Source: Nanobdellota archaeon (GTDB lineage: Archaea > Nanobdellota > Nanobdellia > Woesearchaeales > UBA10107). Taken from it: DNA of 34,762 nucleotides. Both the position numbers and the translations under genes were made by a program. Each line of letters opens with the position of its first letter. Position 1 is the stretch's first letter. Shown here in pieces: positions 1-29,749 of this stretch. The stretch is from NCBI GenBank assembly GCA_038045085.1, contig JBBSYT010000078.1:1-34762 (forward strand), read 5' to 3'. The notes beneath the pieces were generated by a model, which saw only the letters and a program-made list of their open reading frames with translations, searched no databases and was not told where the DNA came from.

Positions 1-744
1 AAAACTACTGCCGAAGATAATTTTTCAGCAACAAGTCCAGGAAGAGAGGCCGAATATTTGATAACTATGCTAAGAGAACTTAAAGATAAAAGCAACTGGG
101 AGAAATATTTCGGAAAAGGATTTGTAGAACTTAAATTCGTTAATGACTGGAAAAAAGCAAGTGGAAGCGATAACAAAGAAGGATGGGGTAAGTGGCAAAA
201 ACAGACATGGGAGAAGTACAATAGAAAGTTTGAAAGTAAAAAAGGGAACATAAATGAAATTATTCGCTTGACCAATTATAGAGTAAAGGAATTGCTTGAA
301 GAGAAAAAAAGAGATGTCAAAAAATTCACAAAATATGTTTTAAATAAGCATGAAAAAGTTGCTCCGAAATTAAAACAAAACTACGAAGAAATGAATAGAA
401 AAGTTGAAGAAACGAATGCAAAAATAAACAAATACAACTCAATAGTTGACGAAACAAACTCTAATTTTGCAGCACTAAGAACAAATCTCCAGAAAGCATC
501 AGGAAATATAACTGATGAGCAGAGGAGAGCGGCAATTTCTTTAATACCTCCATTGTTCAAAAAAGTTTTAGAAGGAATTAAAGAAATTGAAAAACAAGGA
601 TTAGAAATTCGAAAAGAAATGAAAGAATACGAACCACTACTGAAAGATATGAACAAGCGGGAAATAATCTGGAATAAAATCGTCGGATATAGTGCGATAT
701 TTGAAGAACAATATGGATTTGAATTAAAGGAGGAACCTGCATAA
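1..744 (+). CDS. K/E-rich coiled-coil protein, 5' end probably outside the window
   Basis: The frame is open from base 1, with no stop before the tracked TTG at 58. Stop at 742-744, 1 nt before the next start. Composition is heptad-like K/E/N-rich. No family recognised. Confidence 0.5.
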   Translation, partial: KTTAEDNFSATSPGREAEYLITMLRELKDKSNWEKYFGKGFVELKFVNDWKKASGSDNKEGWGKWQKQTWEKYNRKFESKKGNINEIIRLTNYRVKELLEEKKRDVKKFTKYVLNKHEKVAPKLKQNYEEMNRKVEETNAKINKYNSIVDETNSNFAALRTNLQKASGNITDEQRRAAISLIPPLFKKVLEGIKEIEKQGLEIRKEMKEYEPLLKDMNKREIIWNKIVGYSAIFEEQYGFELKEEPA

Positions 745-745
745 A

Positions 746-2056
746 ATGGCCGAAAACAAAGGCGAGTTTGTTTATTATGTAGTCATTGCTTTCCTATTCG
801 GATATGCGGCATGGGATAAATTTCATATCGCAGGATTAATTGGACTGGGAGCAATCTTATTTTTCTGGTATACAAAAAGAGAATATTTTGCATCAATAGC
901 AGGAGCTTGGGGGCTGATATATTTAATAAAACTTCTGATAATTGACATGAACCAATATTTCGTATTGGGGCTCGGAATACTGACGAGCATAATTTTTACT
1001 GGTGCGATGATGAAGTCAATGGAGCTAAGAGAAGCTCTAAAAAAACTTGATCTGGCACAAGAAGTTGCAATGCCTATATTTGGATGGGTTCTGGTCGGAA
1101 TAATTTGGCTTGTTAAATTTCTGATTAATTTTTTGTTAGGACTTATCCCCGTAGTGGGAAGATACATAGCAGGCTGGATAATAAATTTACTCGAAATAGC
1201 AATATTTAGGCCAATAAGATTCATCGCTAATGCAACATGGATGATTATTCTGCACTATTTGGGAACGCTGCAAGTGGCGGGAGCAATTTTAGCTGGAGGT
1301 TTCCCAATACTAATAGGAATTTTGCAGTCGTTGCCAAAATCAATGTCACCGGCAATAACTCACACAGGATTATTACTAGCATGGCAAAAAATCGTTCTTG
1401 GAATGGTTGTGCTTGGAGTTGGAATCTATGCGAGACTCCAAGAAGGCCAGGGGAAAGATGGCGCTTTTGGCGGCTTTATTAAAAAAGAACTTCACAGATT
1501 GCTACTGAAAATTGCAGTCGTCAGAGATTTTGAATGGGTAAGAAATATGGGGAAAGGTGTTGGAAAACTTGAAGCGCAAGCCATGATGCTTGAATTTATT
1601 GAAGACCCAAGAATAAAAGAAAAAATAAGGGACAGACTTGCAAGATTGAAGCTGGCTTTAAAAATGAGAAAAGCTGACCGTGAATTTATTGAAAATGAAA
1701 TGAAAGTAGAAATAACAACTTTGCTTTTGCAGGAATCCGCAAGAAAAAAACAAATACACGGCATAATGAATGCAGAAATCGGTGCAGGAGGAAAAGATCC
1801 AGTAATAGAATTTGAGAGAAAAATACTATTTTACTTAAAACTTGGGGAATGGAGAAAGAACAGAGAAATCGAAAATATGAAAGAAGAATTAGAACAATAT
1901 GGACTTCCACTGGATGATAAAACGGAGTTAAAAATAAAAATGGCGCTTAAGGATAAATTGGATGAAACATACAATAACTTGAATACTACAGAAAAATATG
2001 CAAAATTAGTTGAAAGAATAATGGAGGAAATACAAAGTGAACACAAACAGCAATGA
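746..2056 (+). CDS. Polytopic membrane protein with a long C-terminal coiled-coil domain
   Basis: ATG at 746 preceded by AGGAGG (728-733). The N-terminal ~230 aa contain about 7 hydrophobic helices (e.g. FVYYVVIAFLFGYAAW, VAMPIFGWVLVGIIWLV). The C-terminal ~200 aa are K/E-rich helical. Confidence 0.6.
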   Translation: MAENKGEFVYYVVIAFLFGYAAWDKFHIAGLIGLGAILFFWYTKREYFASIAGAWGLIYLIKLLIIDMNQYFVLGLGILTSIIFTGAMMKSMELREALKKLDLAQEVAMPIFGWVLVGIIWLVKFLINFLLGLIPVVGRYIAGWIINLLEIAIFRPIRFIANATWMIILHYLGTLQVAGAILAGGFPILIGILQSLPKSMSPAITHTGLLLAWQKIVLGMVVLGVGIYARLQEGQGKDGAFGGFIKKELHRLLLKIAVVRDFEWVRNMGKGVGKLEAQAMMLEFIEDPRIKEKIRDRLARLKLALKMRKADREFIENEMKVEITTLLLQESARKKQIHGIMNAEIGAGGKDPVIEFERKILFYLKLGEWRKNREIENMKEELEQYGLPLDDKTELKIKMALKDKLDETYNNLNTTEKYAKLVERIMEEIQSEHKQQ

Positions 2057-2780
2057 TTCATTCATTGAGAAAAAGCTAAACAGCATAATTGCTGCCGGAA
2101 AAGCGCTTGAACTTCTTGAAGAGATAGCGATAGCTGAAAAAACAGAAAGAGATACTAAAAAAGACATTAAAAAAGGAGGCTTTGTTATTGAGGGAGGTAG
2201 GAGACAATCAATTATTGAAAAAATAAGAAGTATAGACCCGTCATTTGCAGAATCGCTAAAATCTGCAGAAAACAAGGATAAATTTATTGAACTAATAAAA
2301 GCAAGAATAGCCGATATCGATAGAGAACTGAGTTTAGTAAGAAAGCAAATAAAAAAAATATCTCCTAAAGAAGAAAAAACGCTCAATCAAAGCGAAAGAG
2401 TACTTGCGAAGTTCTGGAAAATATATGAAGAAATGCTATCAATTCAAAAAAACACTGTTGACAATCTAGAACTTAATAAAAAGTACGAATTTGAACTTGT
2501 TAGTGCTATGAAAGAAAGTAAACTAGGAGAGAAAATTGACTATTTCATCAAAGAAGCGGATAAATCGGTAAAGAGGTCAAGAGAAAACATAATGCTTCTG
2601 GAAAAAATGATTAACCTAATGGAAGAAATGGAAAAAATCAAACCAGATATTGCAAACATGGAAGAACGGATGATTTCGGAAGCAGAAGAGACAGAGGGCA
2701 TAATAGAAATGATACTTTCCAAGTTAGGATTTAAAAGAAAACAATTAAATATCGAAAGAGGGCTAGAAGGAATAAGATGA
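2037..2780 (+). CDS. Coiled-coil protein (GTG start)
   Basis: GTG at 2037 lies 9 nt after GGAGG (2023-2027) and overlaps the upstream gene by 20 nt. There is no in-frame ATG near the 5' end. K/E-rich helical composition. Confidence 0.55.
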   Translation: MNTNSNDSFIEKKLNSIIAAGKALELLEEIAIAEKTERDTKKDIKKGGFVIEGGRRQSIIEKIRSIDPSFAESLKSAENKDKFIELIKARIADIDRELSLVRKQIKKISPKEEKTLNQSERVLAKFWKIYEEMLSIQKNTVDNLELNKKYEFELVSAMKESKLGEKIDYFIKEADKSVKRSRENIMLLEKMINLMEEMEKIKPDIANMEERMISEAEETEGIIEMILSKLGFKRKQLNIERGLEGIR

Positions 2781-3730
2781 AAAAAGTAACTGGATTTGTT
2801 ATTGCGAGCTTGTTTTCAGTACTTAGTGCAGCCGCTCAAAATCCATTCCAGTCTTTTGCCGAAAATGCAAGAACGGGAGCATTATCCGACAGCCTAAAAA
2901 ATATAATTTCTTCAGCATCTGCTATGCCAAATTATATCGAAGCTTTCTTAATATTCATCATACTCGGATTTGCATTAAAAGAAGGAGTTGGAAAAACATG
3001 GCCGGATTCAAAACACAAAGGAGCAATTTCCGTGTCCATGTCGCTTTTACTTGCGTTCGGATACTTGAGAAGTGAAGTTACACTCGGCGGATACATATGG
3101 TATGTACTTGGAACAGTATTAATTGGCATGCTGATTAATCATCTTTCAAATCCAAAAAAAGAGCTTTCAAAATCATTAATTTCACTCGCAATTGGATTTG
3201 CGGTTACATTTTTATTAATATTTGGAATAGGTTTTACCGCAGGCGGAACGGGGTTCAGTCTTCCATGGAAAAGTTCAACAGAACAAACCAGCCCGCTTCA
3301 ATCAAGACTCATAATGAGTTCAACCGGATTATACATCTCCCAAGACCCTAATGAAAACTTTAGACTTGGAGAAACGGCATTAAAAAATGGACGATATGCC
3401 GAAGCAAGAAGATACTTTACAGAAGTTGCTTCTGCAGGAAATGTTCCCGGAAATAATAACTACAATAAAGCGTTCAGATACATAAATCCAGACAAAAAAG
3501 ATGACTTAATATTTAAAAAAATGGTAGCAGACTACAGGGAAGCAATCATAGCGAGAAATGTTAGATTAAGGGATATTGCATTGGAAATTAAAAATAAAAA
3601 TTGGGAACAGGGTTCTGCTGAATTAACGAAGGCCAAAGCTGAGGCAAAAATAGTATATGACGGAATTGCATCAAGAAAAAAAGAACTTTGCACCGAATTT
3701 GAATACAGAGGAGCGCCGATATGCAACTAA
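2777..3730 (+). CDS. Signal-peptide membrane protein with a C-terminal TPR-like 'FRYINPDKKDD' domain
   Basis: ATGA overlap with the upstream stop. N-terminal signal peptide MKKVTGFVIASLFSVLSAAAQ, then about 4 TM helices. The C-terminal ~125 aa are paralogous to 5883..6377. Confidence 0.6.
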   Translation: MKKVTGFVIASLFSVLSAAAQNPFQSFAENARTGALSDSLKNIISSASAMPNYIEAFLIFIILGFALKEGVGKTWPDSKHKGAISVSMSLLLAFGYLRSEVTLGGYIWYVLGTVLIGMLINHLSNPKKELSKSLISLAIGFAVTFLLIFGIGFTAGGTGFSLPWKSSTEQTSPLQSRLIMSSTGLYISQDPNENFRLGETALKNGRYAEARRYFTEVASAGNVPGNNNYNKAFRYINPDKKDDLIFKKMVADYREAIIARNVRLRDIALEIKNKNWEQGSAELTKAKAEAKIVYDGIASRKKELCTEFEYRGAPICN

Positions 3731-5304
3731 CAGATAAAAAACTACCGGGAACATTGATGCTGATGCTAGTTGTTTTAATAGTTTCAGTTTTTGCCGCAGA
3801 CAACGATATATCGACAGCATTGGATGATATTGTTTCGAAAATAAGCAGTCTCGATTTTACAGGAGTTAGCGAAGAAAAACTAGTTGAACTTGGGAAAGAT
3901 GCCATAACCAACGCGAATGAAGCAGAGAAAAGATATGCAGAAATAACTGGACAAAAAATAGAAGAAGCCGAGAAAATTGCGGCGGAAGAAGCAAGAAAAG
4001 GGCAGAAAGAAGGAATTACATTCACTAAAATAAGAAATGCTGTGACAGATAATTATGAAAGAATAATATTTATCTTGACTATATTGGCAGCCATAATAGG
4101 TGGCATTTTAAAATACACAAATCTTGGGAAAAACATCCTGGGGAAACTTAAACTTAGAAAAAGCTTTGTTTCGAGAATGATTGCCTATATTAAAAAAGTT
4201 ACCAGCAAGTTAAGAAAATTAAATTTAGCAGGGATGAACATAAGAAAAACAAAACTATTCAAGAAGCATAACGAAGACGTTGAAGAACTTCTCAGAATAA
4301 CAGAGAAAGACCCGGCCAAAATATATACTGAGAAGGCATTAATATATGAATTAATTGCGAACGAGAAAGAAATAGAAAAAATAAACAAAGTATCTGGAAA
4401 AGAGATAGAAAGGTATGAGAAACTTCTTAAGAACATAAAGCCTGTATCGATAACAAGAATGGCAGAAGACTTAAACGAACAGAGAAAAACTGTTCAAAAA
4501 GTAAGAGAGGTAATTGTAAAAAAAGACTGGCAATCAAGCGAAGTTTACCTTAAAGGAATACCAATAGAAAATATCGAAAGAGACATGGACAAATTAATTT
4601 CGGATTTGACATTTGAAAAAGATTTTGTAAATAAAGAACTTTGGTCAGATTTGAACAAACTATCAACTGCAGTTTACTCATTAAAGCTTGCATGGTCTGC
4701 AGAAAATGTAATAATTGGTCAACAAAATAAAATACTTGATGCACTGATGAAAAACAAAATAGAAGGAACCGAACTAACTAATAGTATCGGCGCAATAAAA
4801 AAACTAAATGATAAATTAAAAGAAGTATATATCAGAGAAATTCAGCTTATGGGAACTCTCCTTGAAAAAGAAAAAATGTTCAAAGCTGAAATTGAAAGTG
4901 TAGAAAAAGGGGTGGCTGCAGAGATTGAAGAGTTGTGGAAAAAGTACAATATTGTCAATGCTGAATCCCTGAATGAGTCAAAAATATTTGAGTTAAATAA
5001 TATTCCATATATCGAGGCCAAAAACTCAATTAAACTAAAAAAAGGAGAAATCAAGAAAATATCGGATTTAAAAAATAATGTGCTTGATTTCGAAAAAGAA
5101 GATGTTGAGACTTTACTCGGAGGGACTGGAAAATCAAAGTTAGGAGAGTGGTTTATCTCGGAGTTCAACAAAAGAGATTTGGCTGAAAGAATTGAAAGCA
5201 TCGCAAGAATTTATCGTAAGAGGGGAGCAGAACCCGATACATTGCTCAATATAAAAACAAAATTAAAGAGAGAAATTGATGACTTCTATCCAGACTTAAA
5301 GTAA
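3721..5304 (+). CDS. Signal-anchored protein with a second TM helix and a ~390 aa coiled-coil region
   Basis: ATG at 3721 lies 7 nt after AGAGGAG (3707-3713) and overlaps the upstream gene by 10 nt. Hydrophobic N-terminus LMLMLVVLIVSVF. Second TM helix IIFILTILAAIIGGIL. Confidence 0.6.
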   Translation: MQLTDKKLPGTLMLMLVVLIVSVFAADNDISTALDDIVSKISSLDFTGVSEEKLVELGKDAITNANEAEKRYAEITGQKIEEAEKIAAEEARKGQKEGITFTKIRNAVTDNYERIIFILTILAAIIGGILKYTNLGKNILGKLKLRKSFVSRMIAYIKKVTSKLRKLNLAGMNIRKTKLFKKHNEDVEELLRITEKDPAKIYTEKALIYELIANEKEIEKINKVSGKEIERYEKLLKNIKPVSITRMAEDLNEQRKTVQKVREVIVKKDWQSSEVYLKGIPIENIERDMDKLISDLTFEKDFVNKELWSDLNKLSTAVYSLKLAWSAENVIIGQQNKILDALMKNKIEGTELTNSIGAIKKLNDKLKEVYIREIQLMGTLLEKEKMFKAEIESVEKGVAAEIEELWKKYNIVNAESLNESKIFELNNIPYIEAKNSIKLKKGEIKKISDLKNNVLDFEKEDVETLLGGTGKSKLGEWFISEFNKRDLAERIESIARIYRKRGAEPDTLLNIKTKLKREIDDFYPDLK

Positions 5305-5775
5305 TTACTCTTCATCATCATCAGACTGAACTGCAGCAACCGGCACATTTGCTGTTGCTTTTGTAGGAGTCATAACTAAGTATTTTCTACCGTCTTTTTC
5401 ATCTATTTTATCAGATATACCTGAGATTCCTTTTCTAGAAAGAGCAGCTAAATCAGCAACTTTGCCGTCTACACAAGCAAGAGCGACAGGAAGGGAAACT
5501 CTGTAATTTCCTATCTTAACTAAAGTATTATTAGGATTAAATTTATGTTCTCTGCCAAAATCTCTTTGAGTAACTATATTTTCCAAAGGCATATCAAATC
5601 CTGGAACTTGAATAGGAGTAATGTAGAAAACTCTGTTTTGTTTTGCTTGTGTACGATTACCAACATAACATCCACCCACAAATGTAAGGGCTCCCACTGC
5701 AACATAAGGCAATAGTTTTCTAACCTTTCTGGACAATCTGTACGCCCATGATGCTCCATCGTTAATATCGTTCAT
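5305..5775 (-). CDS. Small single-pass membrane protein with an acidic C-terminal tail
   Basis: ATG at 5775 lies about 29 nt downstream of a minus-strand TATA box. TM helix LLPYVAVGALTFVGGCYVG. C-terminus ends in DDDEE. Confidence 0.55.
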   Translation of the reverse strand: MNDINDGASWAYRLSRKVRKLLPYVAVGALTFVGGCYVGNRTQAKQNRVFYITPIQVPGFDMPLENIVTQRDFGREHKFNPNNTLVKIGNYRVSLPVALACVDGKVADLAALSRKGISGISDKIDEKDGRKYLVMTPTKATANVPVAAVQSDDDEE

Positions 5776-5800
5776 AGTACGATATTGGGAGATATGCCGA

Positions 5801-5816
5801 TATATAAATCTTTCGT
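5801..5816 (-). promoter_or_regulatory. BRE/TATA promoter for 5305..5775
   Basis: The minus strand reads ACGAAAGATTTATATA. This is a purine-rich BRE directly 5' of a TATA box, about 29 nt from the ATG (leaderless spacing). The same block occurs at 8136-8150 and 14795-14809. Confidence 0.6.
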
Positions 5817-5819
5817 TTT

Positions 5820-5841
5820 GTAGTTACTTATAAGTAGTTAC
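5820..5841. promoter_or_regulatory. Operator-like element GTAGTTAC-TTATAA-GTAGTTAC between two divergent TATA boxes
   Basis: The octamer repeat is read directly from the sequence. Its exact reverse complement occurs at 8155-8176, at the same spacing from the same BRE/TATA block. Confidence 0.45.
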
Positions 5842-5852
5842 AAATAGAAAGG

Positions 5853-5860
5853 TTTATATA
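5853..5860 (+). promoter_or_regulatory. TATA box for 5883..6377
   Basis: TTTATATA lies about 27 nt upstream of the ATG at 5883. Confidence 0.5.
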
Positions 5861-5882
5861 TGAGGTTCTCTAACTATTAACG

Positions 5883-6377
5883 ATGAAAAAGACATTGGCA
5901 GCAGTCATTATCGCCGGATTAACCGGACTAACTGAACTATGCCCAGCAAACACCATTCAATCGAGATTGGTTGTTCAAGGCCAAACAAACCCAGAATATA
6001 GTTACAGATTGGGAGAAGAATCCCGTAAAAACGGAAAATATAAAGAGGCAAGAAAATACTTTAGTGATGTTGTGGCGGCGAGAAATACGCCAGAAAACAA
6101 ACATTACAGACAGGCATTCAGATATATAAATCCGGACAAAAAAGATGATTTGTTATTCAAACAAATGGTCGAAGATTATTCGCAAAGAATAAAAGCAGAA
6201 AGTCTCTTACTAAGAGAACTTGCATCAGAATCAAAAACTTACGATAAAAACAGCCCAGAAAATAAAAAGTTAAAAATAAAAATGGCTGAAATTAGAAATG
6301 CAATTGATGATAAGACAAAAGAGCTGTGTGAAGAATATGAATACAGAGGAGTAAAATGCGAACAAATGAAAATTTAG
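5883..6377 (+). CDS. Secreted protein made almost entirely of the 'FRYINPDKKDD' TPR-like domain
   Basis: Signal peptide MKKTLAAVIIAGLTGLTE. Residues ~37-164 align with the C-terminus of 2777..3730 (YRLGE..KNG.Y.EAR.YF, AFRYINPDKKDDL.FK.MV.DY, ELC.E.EYRG). Confidence 0.6.
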   Translation: MKKTLAAVIIAGLTGLTELCPANTIQSRLVVQGQTNPEYSYRLGEESRKNGKYKEARKYFSDVVAARNTPENKHYRQAFRYINPDKKDDLLFKQMVEDYSQRIKAESLLLRELASESKTYDKNSPENKKLKIKMAEIRNAIDDKTKELCEEYEYRGVKCEQMKI

Positions 6378-7027
6378 AAACAAAAATAAATAGAAAAAAT
6401 TCGAAAATATTGCCACTAATAGCAGCCGCAGGAATCGCAGTTGGAATTCCAGGAAATGCTCGTGCATTTGATTTTGGACTAGGAGGACTTTTTACAGCTC
6501 TTGCTCAGTCAGCAGGATCCATAATTAAAACAATAGGTAAAGAAGTTGGTCCAGCAGCAAAAGAGCTTGGAATAGGTTTAATTGATGCATCGAGAGACGT
6601 TACGCTTAGCGCAAAGGATGCGATAGGAGATGTTTATAGAGATGTTCAAGATGATTTTTGGTACAGAGATGCACAAGACAAATTTAGAACAAGCATAGAT
6701 AGAATAAGAAATTATGAAACTATAAAGATGATTAATAGAACTTCTGAAGCATTAAAATATGCAGGATATGCTGAAGCAATAATGGCAAATCCAGATAAAA
6801 TACCTCCACTTGATGGTGGAAGAGGATATCTTAGAGCTGCATATGACCTAAGACTGGCAGAAGAATCTTCAACATCAAGATATGAAGCAGAAAAGAAACT
6901 TCTTAAAGCAGAACGTGAAAGAAGAGACGCAGAAATATTGAAGGGCTTTGACCAGAGCAAAGGCAGAAAAACAAGCAATGGAAGTACTGACGCCGCTCCT
7001 AAAAAGAAAAATATGTTTGGATTCTAA
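6356..7027 (+). CDS. Secreted hypothetical protein
   Basis: ATG at 6356 lies 4 nt after AGAGGAG (6345-6351) and overlaps the upstream gene by 22 nt. Signal-like segment ILPLIAAAGIAVGIPGNARA. Confidence 0.55.
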   Translation: MRTNENLETKINRKNSKILPLIAAAGIAVGIPGNARAFDFGLGGLFTALAQSAGSIIKTIGKEVGPAAKELGIGLIDASRDVTLSAKDAIGDVYRDVQDDFWYRDAQDKFRTSIDRIRNYETIKMINRTSEALKYAGYAEAIMANPDKIPPLDGGRGYLRAAYDLRLAEESSTSRYEAEKKLLKAERERRDAEILKGFDQSKGRKTSNGSTDAAPKKKNMFGF

Positions 7028-7093
7028 TTTATATTATTAATTTTTATTTTTTAATTATATTTATCTTAGATTAAATTTTAATTTAAAAAATAA

Positions 7094-8113
7094 TTAGTTT
7101 CTAACTATGTCAAAGAACGGCGAATATGTATTTTTCTTTAAATCGACTGGATTTCCAAGAGAATAACTAATCTTTTGTTTCGGAGAAACAGCCTTAACGA
7201 TTGGTCTCCAGCTCAAAATTCCATCAGAAACATAAAGTAATCCGTCATTTGATTTAGTCATAAATGAAATGCTGTCTGCATTTTCAAAAGTAAGTCTTTT
7301 TCCTGCAAGTGTCGTATAATACGGAATATGCTTATCTTTTACTCCATTAGGCAACGGCTTCAAAAGACTGTCTTTTAATTTCAATGAATAAATATCAGAT
7401 TTTCCATTGATATCTTTTCTGACATAAGCCAGAGTATTTTCATCAATCCACGCCATTCTTCCAACAAGTTTATCGATTGAGCTCTTCAAAAATATCTGAT
7501 CGTAAGCTCCAGAATCAGTATCAATACGGATATATTTTCTATTATTTCCATTTTTAGCGCAAACGACGGCCAATTTTTTTCCACCAGATTCAATCACATC
7601 TAAATCTGAAAAGTCTACTTTGTCTTCGAGAATTGTATTAATATTACTTCCGTCTCTGTTTACAAGAACTAAAGACTCCAAATTATTACCTTCGTTGTTT
7701 ATTAAAATAAGTTTATTTCCTATTAGTTTGTATTCTTCAGGAGATACGTCCTTCATAATCAAAGAAATTTCGTCCCCTGATTTCGAATAAAGATTTCCGT
7801 CCTTCATGAAAAATGTGCTATTGTTAAAATATCTTGGATTTTTTATTTTTCCGTATTTAGCTGCAGTACTGGCAGTAAAACTTGTCGAAGAATTATTTGT
7901 AAGACTTTCAGATATTAATTCATTTCCAACTTCATATATTAAAGATTTTCCTGCAAGAGATGAAGATATTGTTTTTTCTGAAGTTGTTTGAGTTGGTAAA
8001 GATTCATATTTAGGAGTTTCTATTGCTTTTGTAACTGGCTTAGGTTTATTTCCTGCACAACCTGCTATTGCTAGTAAAGATGCCAATGCTATTGCTGATT
8101 TGATTGGTTTCAT
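7094..8113 (-). CDS. Lipobox-type surface protein, probably a beta-propeller-like fold
   Basis: N-terminus MKPIKSAIALASLLAIAGCAGN is a signal peptide followed by a lipobox Cys. The rest is beta-rich with repeated short strand-like segments. Fold assignment is a guess. Confidence 0.55.
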   Translation of the reverse strand: MKPIKSAIALASLLAIAGCAGNKPKPVTKAIETPKYESLPTQTTSEKTISSSLAGKSLIYEVGNELISESLTNNSSTSFTASTAAKYGKIKNPRYFNNSTFFMKDGNLYSKSGDEISLIMKDVSPEEYKLIGNKLILINNEGNNLESLVLVNRDGSNINTILEDKVDFSDLDVIESGGKKLAVVCAKNGNNRKYIRIDTDSGAYDQIFLKSSIDKLVGRMAWIDENTLAYVRKDINGKSDIYSLKLKDSLLKPLPNGVKDKHIPYYTTLAGKRLTFENADSISFMTKSNDGLLYVSDGILSWRPIVKAVSPKQKISYSLGNPVDLKKNTYSPFFDIVRN

Positions 8114-8135
8114 ACTTAACCTAACGTAACACTCC

Positions 8136-8150
8136 TTTATATATCTTTCG
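8136..8150 (-). promoter_or_regulatory. BRE/TATA promoter for 7094..8113
   Basis: The minus strand reads CGAAAGATATATAAA, about 28 nt from the ATG at 8113. It shares the ATCTTTCGTTTTGTA block with 5801-5822. Confidence 0.6.
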
Positions 8151-8154
8151 TTTT

Positions 8155-8176
8155 GTAACTACTTATAAGTAACTAC
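8155..8176. promoter_or_regulatory. Operator-like element GTAACTAC-TTATAA-GTAACTAC
   Basis: Exact reverse complement of 5820-5841, in the same position relative to the minus-strand BRE/TATA. Confidence 0.45.
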
Positions 8177-8209
8177 ATGTTAAACCAAGCCCAGAAGCTC
8201 TTAAACCCC

Positions 8210-8224
8210 CGAAATGTTTATAAA
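8210..8224 (+). promoter_or_regulatory. BRE/TATA promoter for 8260..9261
   Basis: CGAAATGTTTATAAA is followed by a leader carrying AGGAGAAAGAGG ahead of the ATG at 8260. Confidence 0.45.
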
Positions 8225-8259
8225 GAGCCTTTGCCTAAGAAGGAGAAAGAGGTATTAAA

Positions 8260-18914: not shown

Positions 18915-19178
18915 ATGGTAATTGAAGAAATTGTAAAAATAGGAAAGCGAGGACAGATAACACTTCCAACAAGAATAAGAAAAACGGAACATCTGAAAGA
19001 AGGTGATTTCTTGGAAATGGCTGACGTTGGCGGAGTCATAACCCTGAGAAGAGTTGAAAAAACTCCAACAGTGATTGATTTGTTCAAAGAAGTTGGAGAA
19101 GCATTAAAACGAGAGGGCATAACGACAAGAGAAAAAGCCCTTAGACTCGCGGAAGAGGTTAAGAGAGAGGTCTCTTGA
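18915..19178 (+). CDS. vapB: AbrB/SpoVT-family antitoxin (VapB-like)
   Basis: KIGKRGQITLPTRIRKTEHLKEGDFLEM is the swapped-hairpin AbrB/MazE motif. TATA box GCTTATAAATA lies about 27 nt upstream. Overlaps the PIN gene. Confidence 0.75.
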   Translation: MVIEEIVKIGKRGQITLPTRIRKTEHLKEGDFLEMADVGGVITLRRVEKTPTVIDLFKEVGEALKREGITTREKALRLAEEVKREVS

Positions 19179-19612
19179 TAAAGGTTGTTCTAGACACCAA
19201 TGTATTTGTTGTAGGATTTATCGATCTCGCACAAGGAATAGAATCTGCAGAGGTTAAAATACTAAAGAACCTTCTCAATAAGAACAATACTATTTTACTT
19301 TCTATTCCAATTGAAGAACAAATAATGAGAGTTATTACAAGAGTCAAGGACAAAAACTTTGCAGGATTAATTAGACATACAATTTGGTCAGATTTTGCGG
19401 CTGAATTCGTGGATGTGGATAAAAATAAAAGAACTATTGAAAGTTTCAAAAATAAAGTACCAAGAAAAGACTTGGGAATTTTCTTGACAGCGTTTATTGG
19501 AAAAGCCGACTATTTAATTTCAAACGATAGAGAATTTTTAGATTCAGCATCGAAATGCCAAAATGAATTTAAGTGCATTAGCCCGAATGAATTTTTGAAT
19601 TTCTTAGAATAA
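19175..19612 (+). CDS. vapC: PIN-domain ribonuclease toxin (VapC-like)
   Basis: N-terminal KVVLDTNVF and a later ISNDREF acidic motif. TTG start overlaps the vapB stop as TTGA. Confidence 0.7.
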   Translation: MIKVVLDTNVFVVGFIDLAQGIESAEVKILKNLLNKNNTILLSIPIEEQIMRVITRVKDKNFAGLIRHTIWSDFAAEFVDVDKNKRTIESFKNKVPRKDLGIFLTAFIGKADYLISNDREFLDSASKCQNEFKCISPNEFLNFLE

Positions 19613-24776: not shown

Positions 24777-26027
24777 ATGGACTTAAAAAAGGTCATATCG
24801 AAGATAAAACCCGGCAATACTTCATTAAAAAAAGAAACAGAAGTTATTGTACAAACTATAAATTCTGAGTTAAAAAAGAACAAAATCAAGGCGACTGCCA
24901 TTGTTGGCGGATCTTTTGCAAAAGATACTCATTTAGCAGACGACTTTGATTGTGATATTTTTGTTAAGTTTGATTACAGATATAAAGATGCCAACATTTC
25001 TGATTTGCTGGAAAAAGTGTTAAAAAAACTTAAACCAGAACGAGTTCATGGTTCAAGAGATTACTTTTTGTTCTCGAATACCCAATTTTGGCAAAGCCGA
25101 AATGAGTCCAGCTCGCAAAGACGAAATAGGGAATTAAACTTTGAAGTTGTTCCTGTTTTGAATATTTCAAAACCAAAGCAAGCAATGAATGTAACTGATG
25201 TTTCTCCCTTGCATGTTGCGTGGGTAAAAAAACACAAGAAAAGCGACCAGATAAGATTAGTAAAAGCATTTTGCAAAGCAAACTCAATTTATGGCGCGGA
25301 AAGTTACATAAAAGGATTTTCAGGACATGTTTTAGACATATTAACAATAAAATTTGGGAGTTTTATGAATTTGTTAAAAGCTTCACAAAAATGGAAACCA
25401 AAATCAGTAATTGATGTTGAAAAGCACTATAAAAATGCGGAAGAGACGATGTTTAAATTAAATGTTTCAAAAACTCAAAGTCCGTTAATTATTGTTGACC
25501 CGATACAGCCAGAAAGAAATGCTGCGGCTGCATTAGGCTATGAACAATTTAATGTTTTTGTTAAAAAAGCAAAAGAATTTTTGAAAAAACCTTCGGAAAA
25601 ATTCTTTGAAAAGAAAGTTTTGACTAAAGTTAACTTTAAGGATGCAATAATAATTAATGTTGTTCCGTTAAAAGGAAAAAGGGATGTTGTTGGAGCCAAA
25701 ATAATGAAAGCTCATGAATCAATTGAAAGAGAATTGGAAAACAATGATTTTGAAATTAAAAATTCGGGATTTATTTGGGATAAAGAAACATTCATTTGGT
25801 TTAAACTGAAAAATGAGAAAATAAGTTCTGAATCTATTGTTAAAGGACCGCCATTAGCGATGAAAAATCATGTTTTGGCATTCAAGAAAGAACATAAAAA
25901 TAGTTTTGAAAAGAATGCAAGAATATTCGCTAAAGTTAAAAGAGAATATGTTAATGCTAAAGAATTGATTAAAAACGTTATTAAAACTGATGAAGTTAAA
26001 GAGAAAGTTAAAATAATTTCTATTTAA
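24777..26027 (+). CDS. cca: CCA-adding tRNA nucleotidyltransferase (archaeal class I)
   Basis: GGSFAKDTHLADDFDCDIFVKF catalytic motif, with length and layout typical of archaeal Cca. The last ~38 codons are repeated at 27479-27595. Confidence 0.85.
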   Translation: MDLKKVISKIKPGNTSLKKETEVIVQTINSELKKNKIKATAIVGGSFAKDTHLADDFDCDIFVKFDYRYKDANISDLLEKVLKKLKPERVHGSRDYFLFSNTQFWQSRNESSSQRRNRELNFEVVPVLNISKPKQAMNVTDVSPLHVAWVKKHKKSDQIRLVKAFCKANSIYGAESYIKGFSGHVLDILTIKFGSFMNLLKASQKWKPKSVIDVEKHYKNAEETMFKLNVSKTQSPLIIVDPIQPERNAAAALGYEQFNVFVKKAKEFLKKPSEKFFEKKVLTKVNFKDAIIINVVPLKGKRDVVGAKIMKAHESIERELENNDFEIKNSGFIWDKETFIWFKLKNEKISSESIVKGPPLAMKNHVLAFKKEHKNSFEKNARIFAKVKREYVNAKELIKNVIKTDEVKEKVKIISI

Positions 26028-26049
26028 TAAAAGGTTGTTTATCTGATAA

Positions 26050-26808
26050 TTATATCGGTAAAATCATATTAAAAACTCGTTTTATTTCTTCAGCACTATG
26101 ACCAATTTGAATTTCTGCAGCACGATAGTCGTCATTAGTTACTACATCTCCGCATTTCTTAAGATTATTTTTCGGAATAAACTGAACAAGATTAATGTCA
26201 TTTAACTGAATATCAGAATACCATGCCAAAGCGAATATATCACAAATATCCTTTATTTTTTTGTGCTGCTTATCTCTATCGGGAAGAGAATTTATTTTCA
26301 TGGCTAAAAGCAATTCTGGCTTAGGCAGAAGAAGTTTTTTATCGAATTCATTCAAGATAATATGCTCCTTTTTGCTGAAAACTAAGTTTAATAATGGCTC
26401 GTCTATTGGATCGAAACCAAATGTTTTTTTGAAGTCTTTTGGGATTGAATCAACTATCAAATCCACAAACAAAGGAAATGTAAAATGAGCATGAACTTTT
26501 TCTCCTTTCTTTATTTCTTCTTCTGTTTCTGTGTGGATTTCTTTAAGGAGCCTGAAACTGATTGATTCAAATCTCAATTTTTCTGTCAGAGTTTTTATCG
26601 TCTGAGCCAGCGCGTCTCCTGCGCCCATATTAAATCCCAAATCAATATCTCTGCTTCCGAGATAAGGTCTTCCCTGCGCTTTCTCGAATTTCTTATTTAC
26701 ATGAAAGAAAACCGCCCAGCCACCAAGAATGCAGATTGGCTCTGCCAGATTCTTAATAACTTCTTTCAAATATTTATAAGATGTTTTGGTCTCAAATTCT
26801 TCATACAT
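26050..26808 (-). CDS. abiEii: Nucleotidyltransferase-fold toxin, AbiEii/DUF1814-like
   Basis: ILGGWAVFF...PYLGSRDIDLGF resembles the GG...S.D.D Pol-beta-type motif. A later LLAMKINSLPDRDKQHKKIKDICDI segment is also consistent. TAATG overlap with the upstream wHTH gene. Confidence 0.55.
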   Translation of the reverse strand: MYEEFETKTSYKYLKEVIKNLAEPICILGGWAVFFHVNKKFEKAQGRPYLGSRDIDLGFNMGAGDALAQTIKTLTEKLRFESISFRLLKEIHTETEEEIKKGEKVHAHFTFPLFVDLIVDSIPKDFKKTFGFDPIDEPLLNLVFSKKEHIILNEFDKKLLLPKPELLLAMKINSLPDRDKQHKKIKDICDIFALAWYSDIQLNDINLVQFIPKNNLKKCGDVVTNDDYRAAEIQIGHSAEEIKRVFNMILPI

Positions 26809-27377
26809 TATACTTTCTCCATAAGCATTTCTCCCGCTTCTCTGCAGGGTCCGCCTTCTTTGATTAAATCAACAATCAACTGAGGCATTGAAACTATCGA
26901 AAGTCCGTTTATGATTCTTTTTCCGTACATTGCATATTTATCTGCAAAAATAAGTTTGACATTTCCTTTTCCATATAATCCGTTTTTTGTCAGAAGATCA
27001 TGCCATTTTTCCAAATCTGTTTCATTTATATACAAATCAATTCTTGACGGAAATAAATGATGCTGAACTATATTTTCTGCCTGATATGTGGTAAGAGCAT
27101 AGTTTAGTTTAGTGTGTTTTAGTATTTCCAACGGTTCTTTTACCATGTAGCTTCTGAACTTCCTCGGTTTTTTTGAAAGGCCCAACCAATACTGCAGAAG
27201 CTTCTTTCTGCTGAGTGGTTTTGTATTTCTTGTAAGTTTCTTCCTTTCTAGTTCTTTTAGAAAAAGAATAACCCACTGCCTAGAACATTCTGCCTGCTTT
27301 GATATCTCATTTTTGCTTAAAATAGCTTTGCTCGCAAGCAAAACTCTTAGTATCTGTTCTCTTTTATCTCCTCGCAT
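26808..27377 (-). CDS. abiEi: wHTH antitoxin/regulator, AbiEi-like
   Basis: N-terminal wHTH (REQILRVLLASKAILSKNEISKQAECSRQWVILFLKELE). C-terminal domain ends in SIVSMPQLIVDLIKEGG..REAGEML, typical of AbiEi-type partners. Confidence 0.55.
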   Translation of the reverse strand: MRGDKREQILRVLLASKAILSKNEISKQAECSRQWVILFLKELERKKLTRNTKPLSRKKLLQYWLGLSKKPRKFRSYMVKEPLEILKHTKLNYALTTYQAENIVQHHLFPSRIDLYINETDLEKWHDLLTKNGLYGKGNVKLIFADKYAMYGKRIINGLSIVSMPQLIVDLIKEGGPCREAGEMLMEKV

Positions 27378-27442
27378 ACATGTAAGTATTGGTGCTAGTA
27401 TATAAAGGTTACTTACATGTAAGTATGTGGGTTAGTATATAA
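27378..27442 (-). promoter_or_regulatory. Tandem ~37-bp promoter/operator repeat upstream of the AbiEi-like gene
   Basis: ACATGTAAGTAT occurs at 27378 and 27415, each followed by TAGTATATAA (27396 and 27433). The second copy sits inside the perfect 16-bp palindrome TACTTACATGTAAGTA (27410-27425). The proximal TATA lies about 25 nt from the ATG. Confidence 0.5.
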
Positions 27443-27478
27443 GAGATAATTCACAGAATACAACTTCAAATTAAGAAA

Positions 27479-27595
27479 AATGCAAAAATATTTGCTAAAG
27501 TTAAAAGAGATTATGTCGATGCTAAAAAATTAATTAGAAACTTGATTAAAAAAGATGAAATTAAAGAGAAAGTTAAGACTGTTTCTTTAAATTAA
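27479..27595 (+). pseudogene. Orphan duplicate of the cca 3' end (about 38 codons, no upstream gene body)
   Basis: It translates to NAKIFAKVKRDYVDAKKLIRNLIKKDEIKEKVKTVSLN*, versus the cca C-terminus NARIFAKVKREYVNAKELIKNVIKTDEVKEKVKIISI*. Confidence 0.6.
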
Positions 27596-28583
27596 AGTTT
27601 CCAGATACTTCAGATGAACCGCCGTCTGAGAATTTTCCTGTGCCAGAATAACTTCCAACCATAGTATCTCCGTCCAAAGTGGCAGTGAATGGTGATTTGT
27701 AGCTCATCCCAGAACCTGATTCCGTCATTATTCCGTTGAGCGTATTGCCGGAGATCGTTCCTGAAATTTTTCCCGAAAGACGATACGACCCGCCGCTACA
27801 TTGTTCAGTGCGCGATACAGAATTCCCCTCATCAATTAAACTTCCGCTAAAAGATTCTTCCGTTTCAGTCAATGAAAATGTAAACATTCCATCGTTGCTT
27901 GTTGTGCAAGGACCAGAAATCTCAATTCCACCATATGGTCCGTTCCAATCTCCTTCAACTGCCGCTCCAGCTTGAACTTTAACTTGTGCATGTCCGCATT
28001 TAGAATTTCCATTTGTATCCTTTACGCAAACTCCAACAGAATAATCTCCTTCTTTGCTTGCTGTTCCGAGTATATGTCCATTGACATCTACAATCATTCC
28101 CATGGGCGGAGCACCTTCAGCAAAACTATCTGATTGGAAACTGTAAGGGGGATTTCCCTTTTCCGCAGTTGCAATTAATTCATCACATTTTTGTTTTACA
28201 ATGCAAGTCGCAAGCTGAGTATGAATTGAAATGCTTGGTCCAATAATAGTTACTGCGAAAGATTTTTCTGCTTTATCTCCTTTGCTGTCAGTCACAACTA
28301 AAATAAATGGAGGAAATGTTTTTTTTGAAGTACCTGCTGGCAAAGAACCACCACCACCTATCGTTCCATCTGGACCTAAATTAAATCCATTAGGCAAGTT
28401 TCCAGAAAGACTAAATGCATAAGGAGGAGTTCCTCCCGTAACTAATATTTTAAAGGTTGCAGTACCGCCAGATAACCAGTTAGGAAGTTCTTTTGTATTA
28501 ATTTGCAAAGAACCATCAGTTTTTACTTGCTGCTGAGTGCACGAAATAAGAAGAAATGCAATAACTAAAAATACTCTTTTCAT
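27573..28583 (-). CDS. Lipobox-type surface protein with putative Ig-like repeats
   Basis: MKRVFLVIAFLLISCTQQ is a signal peptide plus lipobox Cys. LPNGFNLGPDGTIGG is the 'putative Ig' type motif. I preferred the ATG at 28583, with a TATA about 30 nt upstream, over the tracked TTG at 28628. Confidence 0.6.
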   Translation of the reverse strand: MKRVFLVIAFLLISCTQQQVKTDGSLQINTKELPNWLSGGTATFKILVTGGTPPYAFSLSGNLPNGFNLGPDGTIGGGGSLPAGTSKKTFPPFILVVTDSKGDKAEKSFAVTIIGPSISIHTQLATCIVKQKCDELIATAEKGNPPYSFQSDSFAEGAPPMGMIVDVNGHILGTASKEGDYSVGVCVKDTNGNSKCGHAQVKVQAGAAVEGDWNGPYGGIEISGPCTTSNDGMFTFSLTETEESFSGSLIDEGNSVSRTEQCSGGSYRLSGKISGTISGNTLNGIMTESGSGMSYKSPFTATLDGDTMVGSYSGTGKFSDGGSSEVSGNFNLKKQS

Positions 28584-28741
28584 TTTATGATTATTCGATA
28601 ATACACTATTTAAATTTATCTTGAACAAAATAATAATCGTTAAATACAGATAATGATGGAAAGTTGTGGTACATATCTTTAACCTTTTTATATCTTTGCA
28701 ATAGTTAGTTTTTTAAATCAAACTATCCTACTCCGTCTTCT

Positions 28742-29749
28742 ATGATTCAAGAACACTTCAAGAAAACGTTTCTAAAAGGAGATATTTTAACGGATATTTT
28801 AGGACAAGACGTAATTAAGCATGATTTAAAATCAGCGTTGCTAGTCGGAAGGCATATTTTAATCATTGGACCGCCAGGAATAGGAAAAACAACTTTGGCG
28901 AAGAATGTTTCTAAATTATTACCGGAAATTGAGGTAAATGACTGCGGATATCATTGCGACCCTAAAAATCCACAATGTCCTGAATGCAGAGCAGGAAAAT
29001 CAAAGAAAAAAACCATTTCAGGTGCAGAAAGATTCGTTAGAATCCAAGGAAGTCCTGATTTAACTGCAGAAGATTTAATTGGAGATATTGATCCAGCAAA
29101 GGCAATGCAATACGGACCATTAAGCATTCAGGCATTCACTCCTGGAAAAATATTCAAAGCAAATAACGGAGTTTTATTCTTTGATGAGCTAAACAGATGT
29201 CCTGAAAAGCTTCAAAATGCATTACTGCAAGCATTGCAGGAAGGATATGTAACGATTGGGTCTTATGATGTTGATTTGCAGGCAAATTTCATTTTTGTTG
29301 CGACCATGAATCCCGAAGATTCAAATACAGAAAAGATAGCTGATGTTCTTTTAGATAGATTTGATGTAATTTACATGGATTATCCTGAAAAACTTGACAC
29401 AGAAATAAAAATAGTAAAAAAGTCAGGAAAAAGCATAGTAAACTTCCCAGATAAGCTTTTATCTGCTGGCATTTTATTCATAAGAATCTTAAGAGCAAAT
29501 AAAGACGTTGAAAAGAAACCAGGAGTTAGAGCAAGTATCGGATTATACGAAAGAGCACAGGCAAATGCATTCTTGGCTAACAGAGACACGGTAACAAGCA
29601 TAGATTTGAAGGATGCGATAATTTCTGTTGTGGCTCACAGAATAAAATTAAAACCTTCAATGAGTTATTTAACGAATGAGATTGATTTCATCAAAGAGCA
29701 GATGGAAAAATTTCTAGAAGAAAATCTCAAAAAAAGTGATTTTACCTGA
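28742..29749 (+). CDS. AAA+ ATPase of the ChlI/MoxR type with a Cys4 insertion
   Basis: Walker A GPPGIGKTT, Walker B VLFFDELNR, sensor ATMNPE and DRFD. The insertion CGYHCDPKNPQCPEC lies between Walker A and B. Confidence 0.8.
   Translation: MIQEHFKKTFLKGDILTDILGQDVIKHDLKSALLVGRHILIIGPPGIGKTTLAKNVSKLLPEIEVNDCGYHCDPKNPQCPECRAGKSKKKTISGAERFVRIQGSPDLTAEDLIGDIDPAKAMQYGPLSIQAFTPGKIFKANNGVLFFDELNRCPEKLQNALLQALQEGYVTIGSYDVDLQANFIFVATMNPEDSNTEKIADVLLDRFDVIYMDYPEKLDTEIKIVKKSGKSIVNFPDKLLSAGILFIRILRANKDVEKKPGVRASIGLYERAQANAFLANRDTVTSIDLKDAIISVVAHRIKLKPSMSYLTNEIDFIKEQMEKFLEENLKKSDFT

Follow-up and report, generated by a model that had tools for sequence, protein, structure and literature searches.

Organization of the cca locus

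We analyzed a stretch of 34,762 nt from a Nanobdellota archaeon (GenBank assembly GCA_038045085.1, contig JBBSYT010000078.1; GC content of the contig 34%), in the following called the window, in which the 3' end of cca, the gene of the CCA-adding enzyme, recurs behind two small genes that resemble a toxin-antitoxin (TA) pair. All coordinates are window positions, L-numbers denote loci from other genomes, P-numbers denote homologous proteins, and C1, O2 and O3 are copies of the cca end. The core of the locus consists of the following features, each given with the basis of its assignment:

24777..26027, plus strand: cca, archaeal class I CCA-adding enzyme, intact, 416 aa (Pfam tRNA_NucTransf2 9e-36, CAA_C 4e-13)
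25906..26031, plus strand: C1, the working cca terminus, i.e. the last ~122 nt including the stop codon and 4 further nt (repeat search)
26050..26808, minus strand: toxin-like nucleotidyltransferase (NTase), 252 aa, distantly AbiEii/DUF1814-like (Pfam AbiEii, fold model)
26808..27377, minus strand: antitoxin-like winged helix-turn-helix (wHTH) protein, 189 aa, whose gene shares 1 nt with the toxin start (TAATG) (gene order, weak wHTH matches)
27471..27596, plus strand: O2, the orphan cca terminus, in frame, lacking a start and a gene body (repeat search, translation)

A repeat search unveiled a single long direct repeat in this region, which is ungapped, 126 nt in length and 81% identical between its copies at 25906-26031 and 27471-27596 (spacing 1565 nt). 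An original prediction, derived from a first reading of the sequence, had estimated the identity at about 80% by eye. Local alignment of the cca end with the orphan region scored 132, compared to a maximum of 30 (mean 18.7, standard deviation 3.3) for a null of ~2000 random 200-nt window pieces taken on both strands. A coincidental similarity of low-complexity K/E/I-rich sequence, against which the original prediction had advised a check, is thereby excluded.

O2 translates in frame to NAKIFAKVKRDYVDAKKLIRNLIKKDEIKEKVKTVSLN* and is preceded by a stop codon; as had been noticed before, no gene body stands in front of it. Between C1 and O2 only the two genes at 26050-26808 and 26808-27377, both on the minus strand, and ~95 nt of upstream region are present, in full agreement with the predicted content of a wHTH gene, an NTase-fold gene overlapping it as TAATG, and their promoter. 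The overlap of the orphan with the gene on the opposite strand was recovered as well: the final 24 nt of O2 are antisense to the 3' end of the open reading frame (ORF) 27573-28583/28628, corresponding to the last 8 codons of an immunoglobulin (Ig)-domain gene. The same junctions of cca, cassette and orphan are present in two more assemblies, both independent and both from Hainich H51 replicates: L002 (3067 bp) and L003 (2968 bp). This renders an assembly chimera unlikely; with three assemblies including the window an assembly artefact was rejected.

The cca product matches P0001 at 100%, its relatives are 65-81% identical, and it reaches 254 bits against NCBIfam TIGR03671, below the curated equivalog cut-off of 281.3. 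Compared to most relatives (398-402 aa) the window protein carries a 17-aa insertion TQFWQSRNESSSQRRNRE at 25077-25127 (residues ~101-117). A different 17-aa insertion is found at the same position in P0003. Both insertions suggest either a surface loop that varies or a position where indels recur.

The cca/AAA interval in related genomes

For comparison, the interval downstream of cca was analyzed in related genomes. In the window it contains three further features:

27573..28583, minus strand: Ig-domain (He_PIG) gene, secreted or lipoprotein-like (Pfam He_PIG 1e-8)
28659..28682, plus strand: O3, a tentative third cca-end remnant GAAAGTTGTGGTACATATCTTTAA, abutting the conserved AAA promoter (junction homology)
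28742..29749, plus strand: MoxR-type AAA ATPase gene, the presumed ancestral downstream neighbour of cca (Pfam AAA_3 / Mg_chelatase)

In L004, L005-7, L095 (CCA identity 78%) and L097 (65%) cca is followed after 45-60 nt by a MoxR AAA/VWA gene pair, and no Ig gene is present between cca and the AAA gene. Likewise, the start of the same AAA promoter lies right behind the cca stop codon in L088 (CCA identity 81%). Since this arrangement is the most widespread and the deepest one, the order cca followed by AAA is considered ancestral. A different arrangement was observed for L094 (CCA identity 70%), where cca is convergent with an Ig gene, the 3' ends of both overlap by 20 nt, the AAA/VWA pair follows and no cassette is present. 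The Ig homolog of L094 (P0242) is 66% identical to that of the window and occupies the same position; homologs of this gene in general are 329-358 aa in length and confined to DPANN-type archaea. In the window the ORF could start either with TTG at 28628 (351 aa) or with the annotated ATG at 28583 (336 aa), which are 15 residues apart.

L094 is the empty site that had been predicted, in which cca is directly followed by a homolog of 27573..28583. O2 together with the 3' end of the Ig gene in the window is collinear, base for base, with the cca end and the Ig 3' end of L094. Judged by these alignments, O2 is the terminus from the stage at which cca and the Ig gene were direct convergent neighbours, and the cassette is the youngest layer of the locus. 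The arrangement in the window is best described as an insertion, behind cca, of a discrete and putatively self-regulated two-gene TA-like cassette that displaced the former cca terminus. It likewise has the characteristics by which insertions with long target duplication were recognised (PMC2853133), namely an insert shorter than 20 kb that is free of other mobile-element genes, repeats longer than 30 bp and a single copy at an empty site (L094).

The interval has received other contents in other lineages. In L089 three genes lie between cca and the AAA gene, first a convergent TrmB gene and then two more, and in L090/L091 (CCA identity 73%) a convergent toxin homolog, 77% identical to that of the window, lies 23 nt behind cca. 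The contigs of L090 and L091 stop inside the toxin gene, and the far junction is therefore unreadable. Altogether three independent short contigs break within a cca-adjacent toxin gene (L090 at 7195, L091 at 3281 and L003 at 2966), pointing to heterogeneity among strains or to assemblies broken by repeats at the cassette. Because the Ig gene itself is inserted relative to the older order of cca and AAA, the locus represents a multi-layer insertion hot spot. In this comparison the cca/AAA junction (26028-28741) stands out as a local hot spot, at least four different contents having been observed: nothing, the Ig gene, TrmB plus two genes, or the TA cassette.

A further layer may be recorded by O3. 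Its homology to the junction of cca stop and AAA promoter in L004, L005 and L088 sets in 10 nt or more ahead of the cca stop codon, and the coding part is significant against L004 only (P=0.004), for which reason O3 was downgraded from a firm third copy; it is probably, with weak support, a remnant of the ancestral cca end. A clearer case is found in L089, where a cca-end-like sequence GAAAGTCCGCGCCATAAGTCTTT precedes the AAA promoter (P=0.004-0.02).

The toxin-like and antitoxin-like genes

The original prediction had addressed the two genes of the cassette as AbiEi/AbiEii-like. For the AbiEii part this could be upheld in a restricted sense. The toxin-like protein scores 22.3 bits (E=1.5e-4) against Pfam AbiEii (PF08843) and narrowly misses the gathering score of 22.5, and 20 of 28 family members match the same model at E<=0.01 (best 1.1e-5). 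Against PADLOC AbiEii only E=0.033 was obtained, and neither NCBIfam nor a profile search of the sequence against the PDB gave a match. An AlphaFold2 (AF2) model based on the family alignment reached a mean predicted local distance difference test (pLDDT) of 86 and a predicted template modelling score (pTM) of 0.85. With this model Foldseek returned NTase folds as the best PDB neighbours: 5uvd (E 6.6e-5), the H. pylori NTase 4ok0, ANT(2'')-Ia and viral poly(A) synthases. The NTase motif GSRDIDLGF is invariant in the toxin family, and so are D115 and D119 downstream of it. The modelled protein accordingly combines a pol-beta-type NTase fold carrying a G[SG]...D.D motif with a C-terminal helical domain, and is classified as a putative distant AbiEii-type NTase whose family membership is borderline. 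AbiEii-type NTases have been described as toxins.

For the antitoxin-like protein the AbiEi assignment did not hold. Only weak and generic wHTH matches (HTH_11, HTH_69, MarR, TrmB) were obtained, located at residues 5-70, and the PDB profile search listed only MarR-type regulators at E>=0.013. The window protein has no AbiEi match in Pfam, PADLOC or NCBIfam; among its relatives 1 of 31 touches AbiEi_2 (E=0.0038), the others giving generic wHTH matches. The C-terminal 110 aa are conserved across the family. A single-sequence AF2 model was unusable (pLDDT 40). With respect to its architecture, the protein resembles AbiEi in having an N-terminal wHTH and a C-terminal domain, in overlapping the NTase gene from upstream and in the repeats within its own promoter; membership in the AbiEi family as such is not shown by the profiles.

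The toxin family comprises at least 477 matches at 40-82% identity, and cassettes of this family occur in Woesearchaeota, Nanoarchaeota, Methanoperedens, other Methanosarcinales, Thermoplasmata, Bathyarchaeia and Thaumarchaeota. The antitoxin-like gene lies immediately upstream of the toxin-like gene in 78 of 80 genome loci, the remaining two being cut at a contig end. Taken together, gene overlap, strict pairing and a conserved operator (see below) give the pair what is, in its predicted features, the anatomy of an autoregulated type II/IV TA operon of AbiE architecture.

A second putative TA pair, composed of a MazE/AbrB-type antitoxin and a PIN-domain toxin, is located at 18915-19612, ~5 kb upstream of cca. 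L004 and L005 lack it at the equivalent position and have other small genes there. The match to the toxin homolog of L081 is split by a change of frame (6471-6480), so that this cassette is possibly pseudogenised.

Promoter, operator and cassette ends

Upstream of the antitoxin-like gene a compact regulatory region was identified, which together with two spacers completes the insert:

26032..26049, minus strand: 18-nt spacer from the repeat to the toxin stop codon, right cassette end (junction comparison)
27378..27456, minus strand: putative cassette promoter/operator (conserved across loci in unrelated contexts)
27378-27388, minus strand: operator half-site over the antitoxin start codon
27399-27406, minus strand: TATA box TTTATATA, read on the minus strand
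27410-27425, minus strand: perfect 16-nt palindrome TACTTACATGTAAGTA
27436-27443, minus strand: second TATA-like box
27444-27456, minus strand: distal half-site-like element
27457..27470, minus strand: left insert spacer, non-conserved, 0-40 nt in other loci (junction comparison)

The operator is laid out as a 37-nt tandem repeat (27377-27413 and 27414-27450). The element CTTACATGTAAG is present in exactly one copy in each of 27 loci, ~33-47 nt before the antitoxin ATG. The antitoxin presumably binds the TTACATGTAA palindromes over the TATA box and the start site and would neutralise the NTase toxin. The palindromes vary with the cassette clade (TTACATGTAA, TACCGATATATCGGTA and TACCTATATAGGTA; loci L034, L051, L056, L066, L071, L074 and L078), their positions relative to the TATA boxes being constant, which suggests a possible co-evolution of the wHTH protein and its operator site.

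The insert proper (26032-27470) is 1439 nt in length in the window and 1437 nt in L052. In other loci the copy of the flanking repeat on the antitoxin side mostly ends 72-135 nt before the ATG, just beyond the operator, and the copy on the toxin side often begins 2-75 nt past the stop codon; some family loci contain additional cargo on one side. The first ~12 nt past the toxin stop look alike by eye, without having been scored, in the closest cassettes L090, L092 and L093. Comparison of the family junctions yielded neither conserved terminal nucleotides nor a shared core between cassette and repeat. The third-position GC content (GC3) of the cassette is 0.30-0.32 versus 0.245-0.27 for the host genes, a slight excess that counts in favour of the import proposed below.

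The same footprint across the cassette family

The original prediction had regarded cca as the target of the element. This part was not borne out: cca was found within 6 kb of the cassette in 0 of 80 other family loci. A family-wide preference for cca and a functional link between cca and the toxin were both ruled out on this basis. What recurs across the family is the footprint. Direct repeats flanking the cassette with a score of at least 100 are present in 10 of 70 loci, compared to 1 of 198 controls, which were pseudo-cassettes set elsewhere in the same loci; at a score of at least 60 the numbers are 15 of 70 and 6 of 198. Within 330 nt on each side, the 99% null is surpassed in 14 of 68 loci. 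These repeats are 17-265 nt in length and 78-99% identical, and their sequence differs at every locus. Nearly identical pairs were found in L037 (98-99%) and L071 (97%).

At least 10 of 23 repeats correspond to the 3' end of a gene facing the cassette, including the stop codon and a few bases, or to that of a tRNA. The duplicated ends belong to genes of 369, 1772, 686, 438, 760, 125 and 79 aa in addition to cca, and the cassette occurs in either orientation. In L052 the repeat (17-20 nt) is the 3' end of an intron-containing tRNA, covering the 3' T-stem half and the acceptor strand together with 2-3 additional nt. The tRNA gene in question, with an intron of ~115 nt, lies right before the cassette (5140-5352 / 6789-6808 of L052) and was read by eye, ARAGORN and Rfam having missed it. 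The duplicated end of L015 (3966-4083 / 5857-5978) encodes a hydrophobic stretch followed by RRRE (GLAALATALAGAGAFALRRRE) and looks like a C-terminal membrane anchor or a sorting signal of a surface protein.

As anticipated by the original prediction, no integrase was detected; neither an integrase nor a transposase lies between the repeats in ~20 repeat-flanked loci or anywhere in the window. With neither a recombinase nor a shared attachment (att) core the locus does not have the hallmarks of an integrase-borne element. A decayed remnant of such an element, as had been proposed, does not fit a bare unit of ~1.44 kb that is flanked by differing, target-derived repeats at many loci, one pair of which is 98-99% identical. 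Of the 3'-end integrative footprint that had been recognised initially, the insertion and the displacement of the former cca terminus stand, and the attribution to an integrase element, in view of locus-specific repeats and the lack of a recombinase, does not. Relatives of the cassette were not found among the IMG/VR viral contigs, leaving a viral or proviral carrier unsupported. An integron cassette was rejected as well, since the repeat consists of coding sequence from cca, can be aligned with cca orthologs, and no IntI-like gene is present in the window; an attC fold was not explicitly modelled for this.

Divergence of the repeat copies

The two copies of a repeat can differ because one of them drifted in place or because they came from different lineages. 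To distinguish both cases the differences between the copies were evaluated by permutations preserving the exact mutation spectrum. The window copies differ at 19 positions distributed over 37 codons, the frame is open and the residue changes are conservative (P=5e-4; P=0.012 for the 96-nt core). Protein-conservative differences were also found in L021 (P=5e-5) and L016, where 3 of 3 differences are synonymous (P=0.002); L018 gave P=0.07, and L024 and L074 were uninformative in this test. The combined P value according to Fisher is 8e-8, or 8e-6 if the window is excluded. An orphan duplicated in place should drift neutrally, so that conservative differences point to an import together with the end of a donor gene. 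Furthermore, the differences gather at the ends of the repeat in L021 (P=0.013) and L074 (P=0.048), which is the expected trace of a crossover inside the repeat.

The relationship among the cca ends themselves is two-sided. Of the cca ends included in the comparison, C1 is the one closest to O2 (86% over the 96-nt core), and at 11 of the 13 differing core positions the derived state is that of O2, which forms a long branch; C1 is 94% identical to L088 and O2 82%. The last 18 nt of C1, however, are 92% identical to L090, which belongs to the other lineage with a cassette at cca, and 67% identical to L088. With respect to a single origin in place, the proximity of O2 to C1 thus speaks for it, yet the conservative differences and the L090-like tail of C1 point to two lineages.

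Origin of the insertion

From these data we propose that the cassette was imported joined to a donor cca end and integrated by homologous recombination, a proposal to which we give an even chance; the recombination route and the donor are inferred. The 1439-bp cassette would have entered the locus of convergent cca and Ig genes immediately behind the cca stop codon, arriving on DNA of a related archaeon and joined to the cca 3' end of that donor. Homologous recombination of the host within the cca end would have integrated it in one of two ways: a small circle underwent a single crossover of the Campbell type, or one homologous crossover was combined with one illegitimate join. The incoming end would thereby have turned into the working terminus C1, and the resident terminus O2 would have stayed as an orphan beyond the cassette, still joined to the Ig gene.

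Several observations weigh against this proposal. No donor genome with a cca end close to C1 or O2 was found; scanning metagenomes with CCA yielded no more than 20 loci, none of them a new cca locus with a cassette. Gene-by-gene identities around cca do not reveal a mosaic break, and the cassettes of the window and L090, at 77% identity, are not each other's closest relatives. The third-position bias of the window differences (9 of 19, P=0.15) is not significant on its own. About 75-80% of the family loci have no detectable repeat. Homologous recombination alone leaves unexplained how the cassette reaches new, unrelated targets and why its ends are so tight (0-40 nt on the left, 2-75 nt on the right). 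Finally, the supposed TA activity of the cargo is suggested by weak family similarity alone.

Since a donor and a mosaic break are missing, the cca-linked cassettes are not sisters, and targets and ends are left unexplained, duplication in place persists as a serious rival, although we regard it as rather improbable. According to this explanation the cca end was nicked at two positions 126 nt apart, one of them just past the cca stop, the insertion with long target duplication was completed by fill-in, and the orphan drifted afterwards. Variable, target-derived repeats around a discrete, recombinase-free unit match the pattern described for restriction-modification genes (PMC2853133), and the nearly identical repeats of L037 and L071 as well as the closeness of O2 to C1, with differences mostly derived in O2 as in a relaxed copy, fit this sequence of events. 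Compared to homologous recombination by itself, it also offers a better account of the new targets and of the constancy of the cassette ends. It conflicts with orphan differences that are far more protein-conservative than spectrum-matched random ones (5e-4 for the window, 8e-8 combined), with the clustering of differences at the repeat ends in L021 and L074, and with the last 18 nt of C1, which resemble L090 and neither O2 nor L088; moreover, terminal nucleotides conserved for a dedicated nicking or integration activity were not found at the junctions.

An integrase acting in trans is a weaker rival than duplication in place, and we consider it quite improbable that the cassette is a site-specific integrative element with an attP that mimics the cca 3' end, its integrase having been lost since or the cassette being a passenger mobilised in trans. 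A duplicated gene 3' end with a replacement end, tandem layers of C1, O2 and possibly O3, and several unrelated inserts sharing the cca/AAA site would be expected for such an element; the 17-20-nt repeat at the tRNA 3' end in L052 is a classical integrase footprint, and a functional end borne by the element would likewise give conservative differences. But neither the window nor the repeats of the ~20 flanked loci enclose an integrase, the cassette-repeat junctions lack a shared core, cca is no target elsewhere, and the youngest case, L037, holds just the two genes. In addition, the repeats are wholly different between loci, for which reason one cassette family would need a separate attP and integrase for each target.

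The least probable explanation, to which we attach very little credence, is that the wHTH protein and the nucleotidyltransferase themselves catalyse or prime the insertion behind the 3' ends of genes or RNAs. Discrete boundaries, either orientation, many unrelated targets and repeats whose ends often lie a few nt beyond a stop codon or coincide with the 3' end of a tRNA could be understood in this way, as could the high conservation of both proteins (40-82% identity) over several archaeal lineages. Nuclease, recombinase or reverse-transcriptase domains were not detected in the pair, though, one of the proteins resembles the AbiEii-type NTases known as toxins, conserved termini were not found, and most loci have no repeats. 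A further idea, with a slim chance of being right, is that the pair constitutes a minimal recombinase-free archaeal mobile element that actively inserts behind gene and tRNA 3' ends and makes long target duplications. If true, it would be an archaeal, TA-type counterpart to the mobility of restriction-modification units, driven by its own proteins or by an addiction phenotype.

Relation to known systems

The insertion of restriction-modification genes with long target duplication was reportedly recognised by Nobusato et al. in 2000. Restriction-modification complexes inserted in this manner are flanked by repeats of 46-423 bp in the absence of linked mobility genes (Furuta, Abe & Kobayashi, NAR 2010, PMC2853133). 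These repeats are variable and align with a single copy in a genome with the empty site, some overlap the 3' end of a neighbouring gene, and the mechanism is unknown (PMC2853133); the systematic screen retained no archaeal case (PMC2853133). Our cassette family is alike in comprising a small, presumably addictive unit, no linked recombinase and long locus-specific repeats, some of them at gene 3' ends, and in the window the repeat likewise aligns with one copy at the empty site. It differs in its cargo, an NTase/wHTH TA-like pair, in its archaeal hosts and in the absence of an encoded DNA-cleaving activity that could make the break. A further difference is the lower repeat identity (78-99%) with protein-conservative differences, which suggests that one copy came from another lineage. 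The long-target-duplication pattern would thus extend to a TA-type cassette and to archaea, with repeat copies that look like alleles of different lineages.

With the AbiE type IV TA/abortive infection systems and MenAT (DUF1814) the pair shares an overlapping two-gene operon with the antitoxin first, a toxin of pol-beta NTase fold with marginal PF08843 matches, an antitoxin composed of an N-terminal wHTH and a second domain, and palindromic repeats over the promoter that suggest autorepression. In contrast to these systems, the window toxin lies under the Pfam threshold and has no PDB sequence match, and the 189-aa antitoxin lacks a convincing AbiEi match. A literature search for AbiE in connection with archaeal repeats returned nothing relevant.

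Genomic islands that an integrase has placed at the 3' end of a tRNA or protein gene resemble the locus in the duplicated end, the functional upstream copy and the piling up of inserts at one site, and one family member (L052) does sit in a tRNA 3' end. Unlike such islands, the cassette has no integrase in cis, no common att core and locus-specific repeats, and at 1.44 kb the insert is small. Homology-facilitated illegitimate recombination and Campbell-type insertion-duplication are known from bacterial transformation and archaeal pop-in genetics, i.e. from laboratory crosses, mainly with competent bacteria. They have in common with our case one homologous anchor, copies that differ like donor and recipient alleles, a variable length and no dedicated enzyme, but the tight cassette ends are left unexplained by this route alone. 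We know of no documented case in which a single cassette family of uncultured archaea has repeatedly taken this route in nature.

These results bear on the old question of how TA and restriction-modification modules move between genomes without recombinases of their own. The footprint occurs in roughly a fifth of ~70 loci, spread over Woesearchaeota, Nanoarchaeota, Methanoperedens, Thermoplasmata and Bathyarchaeia, and the pattern of copy divergence provides a handle on the route, that is, import of a donor end versus duplication in place. The termini of essential housekeeping genes such as cca appear to be repeatedly replaceable even in streamlined DPANN genomes. For annotation, orphan gene ends beside defence cassettes are better read as insertion scars than as pseudogenes. 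Far from the cassette, at positions 1-9261, the window contains about ten co-directional genes with no convincing Pfam assignment and only weak TPR matches.

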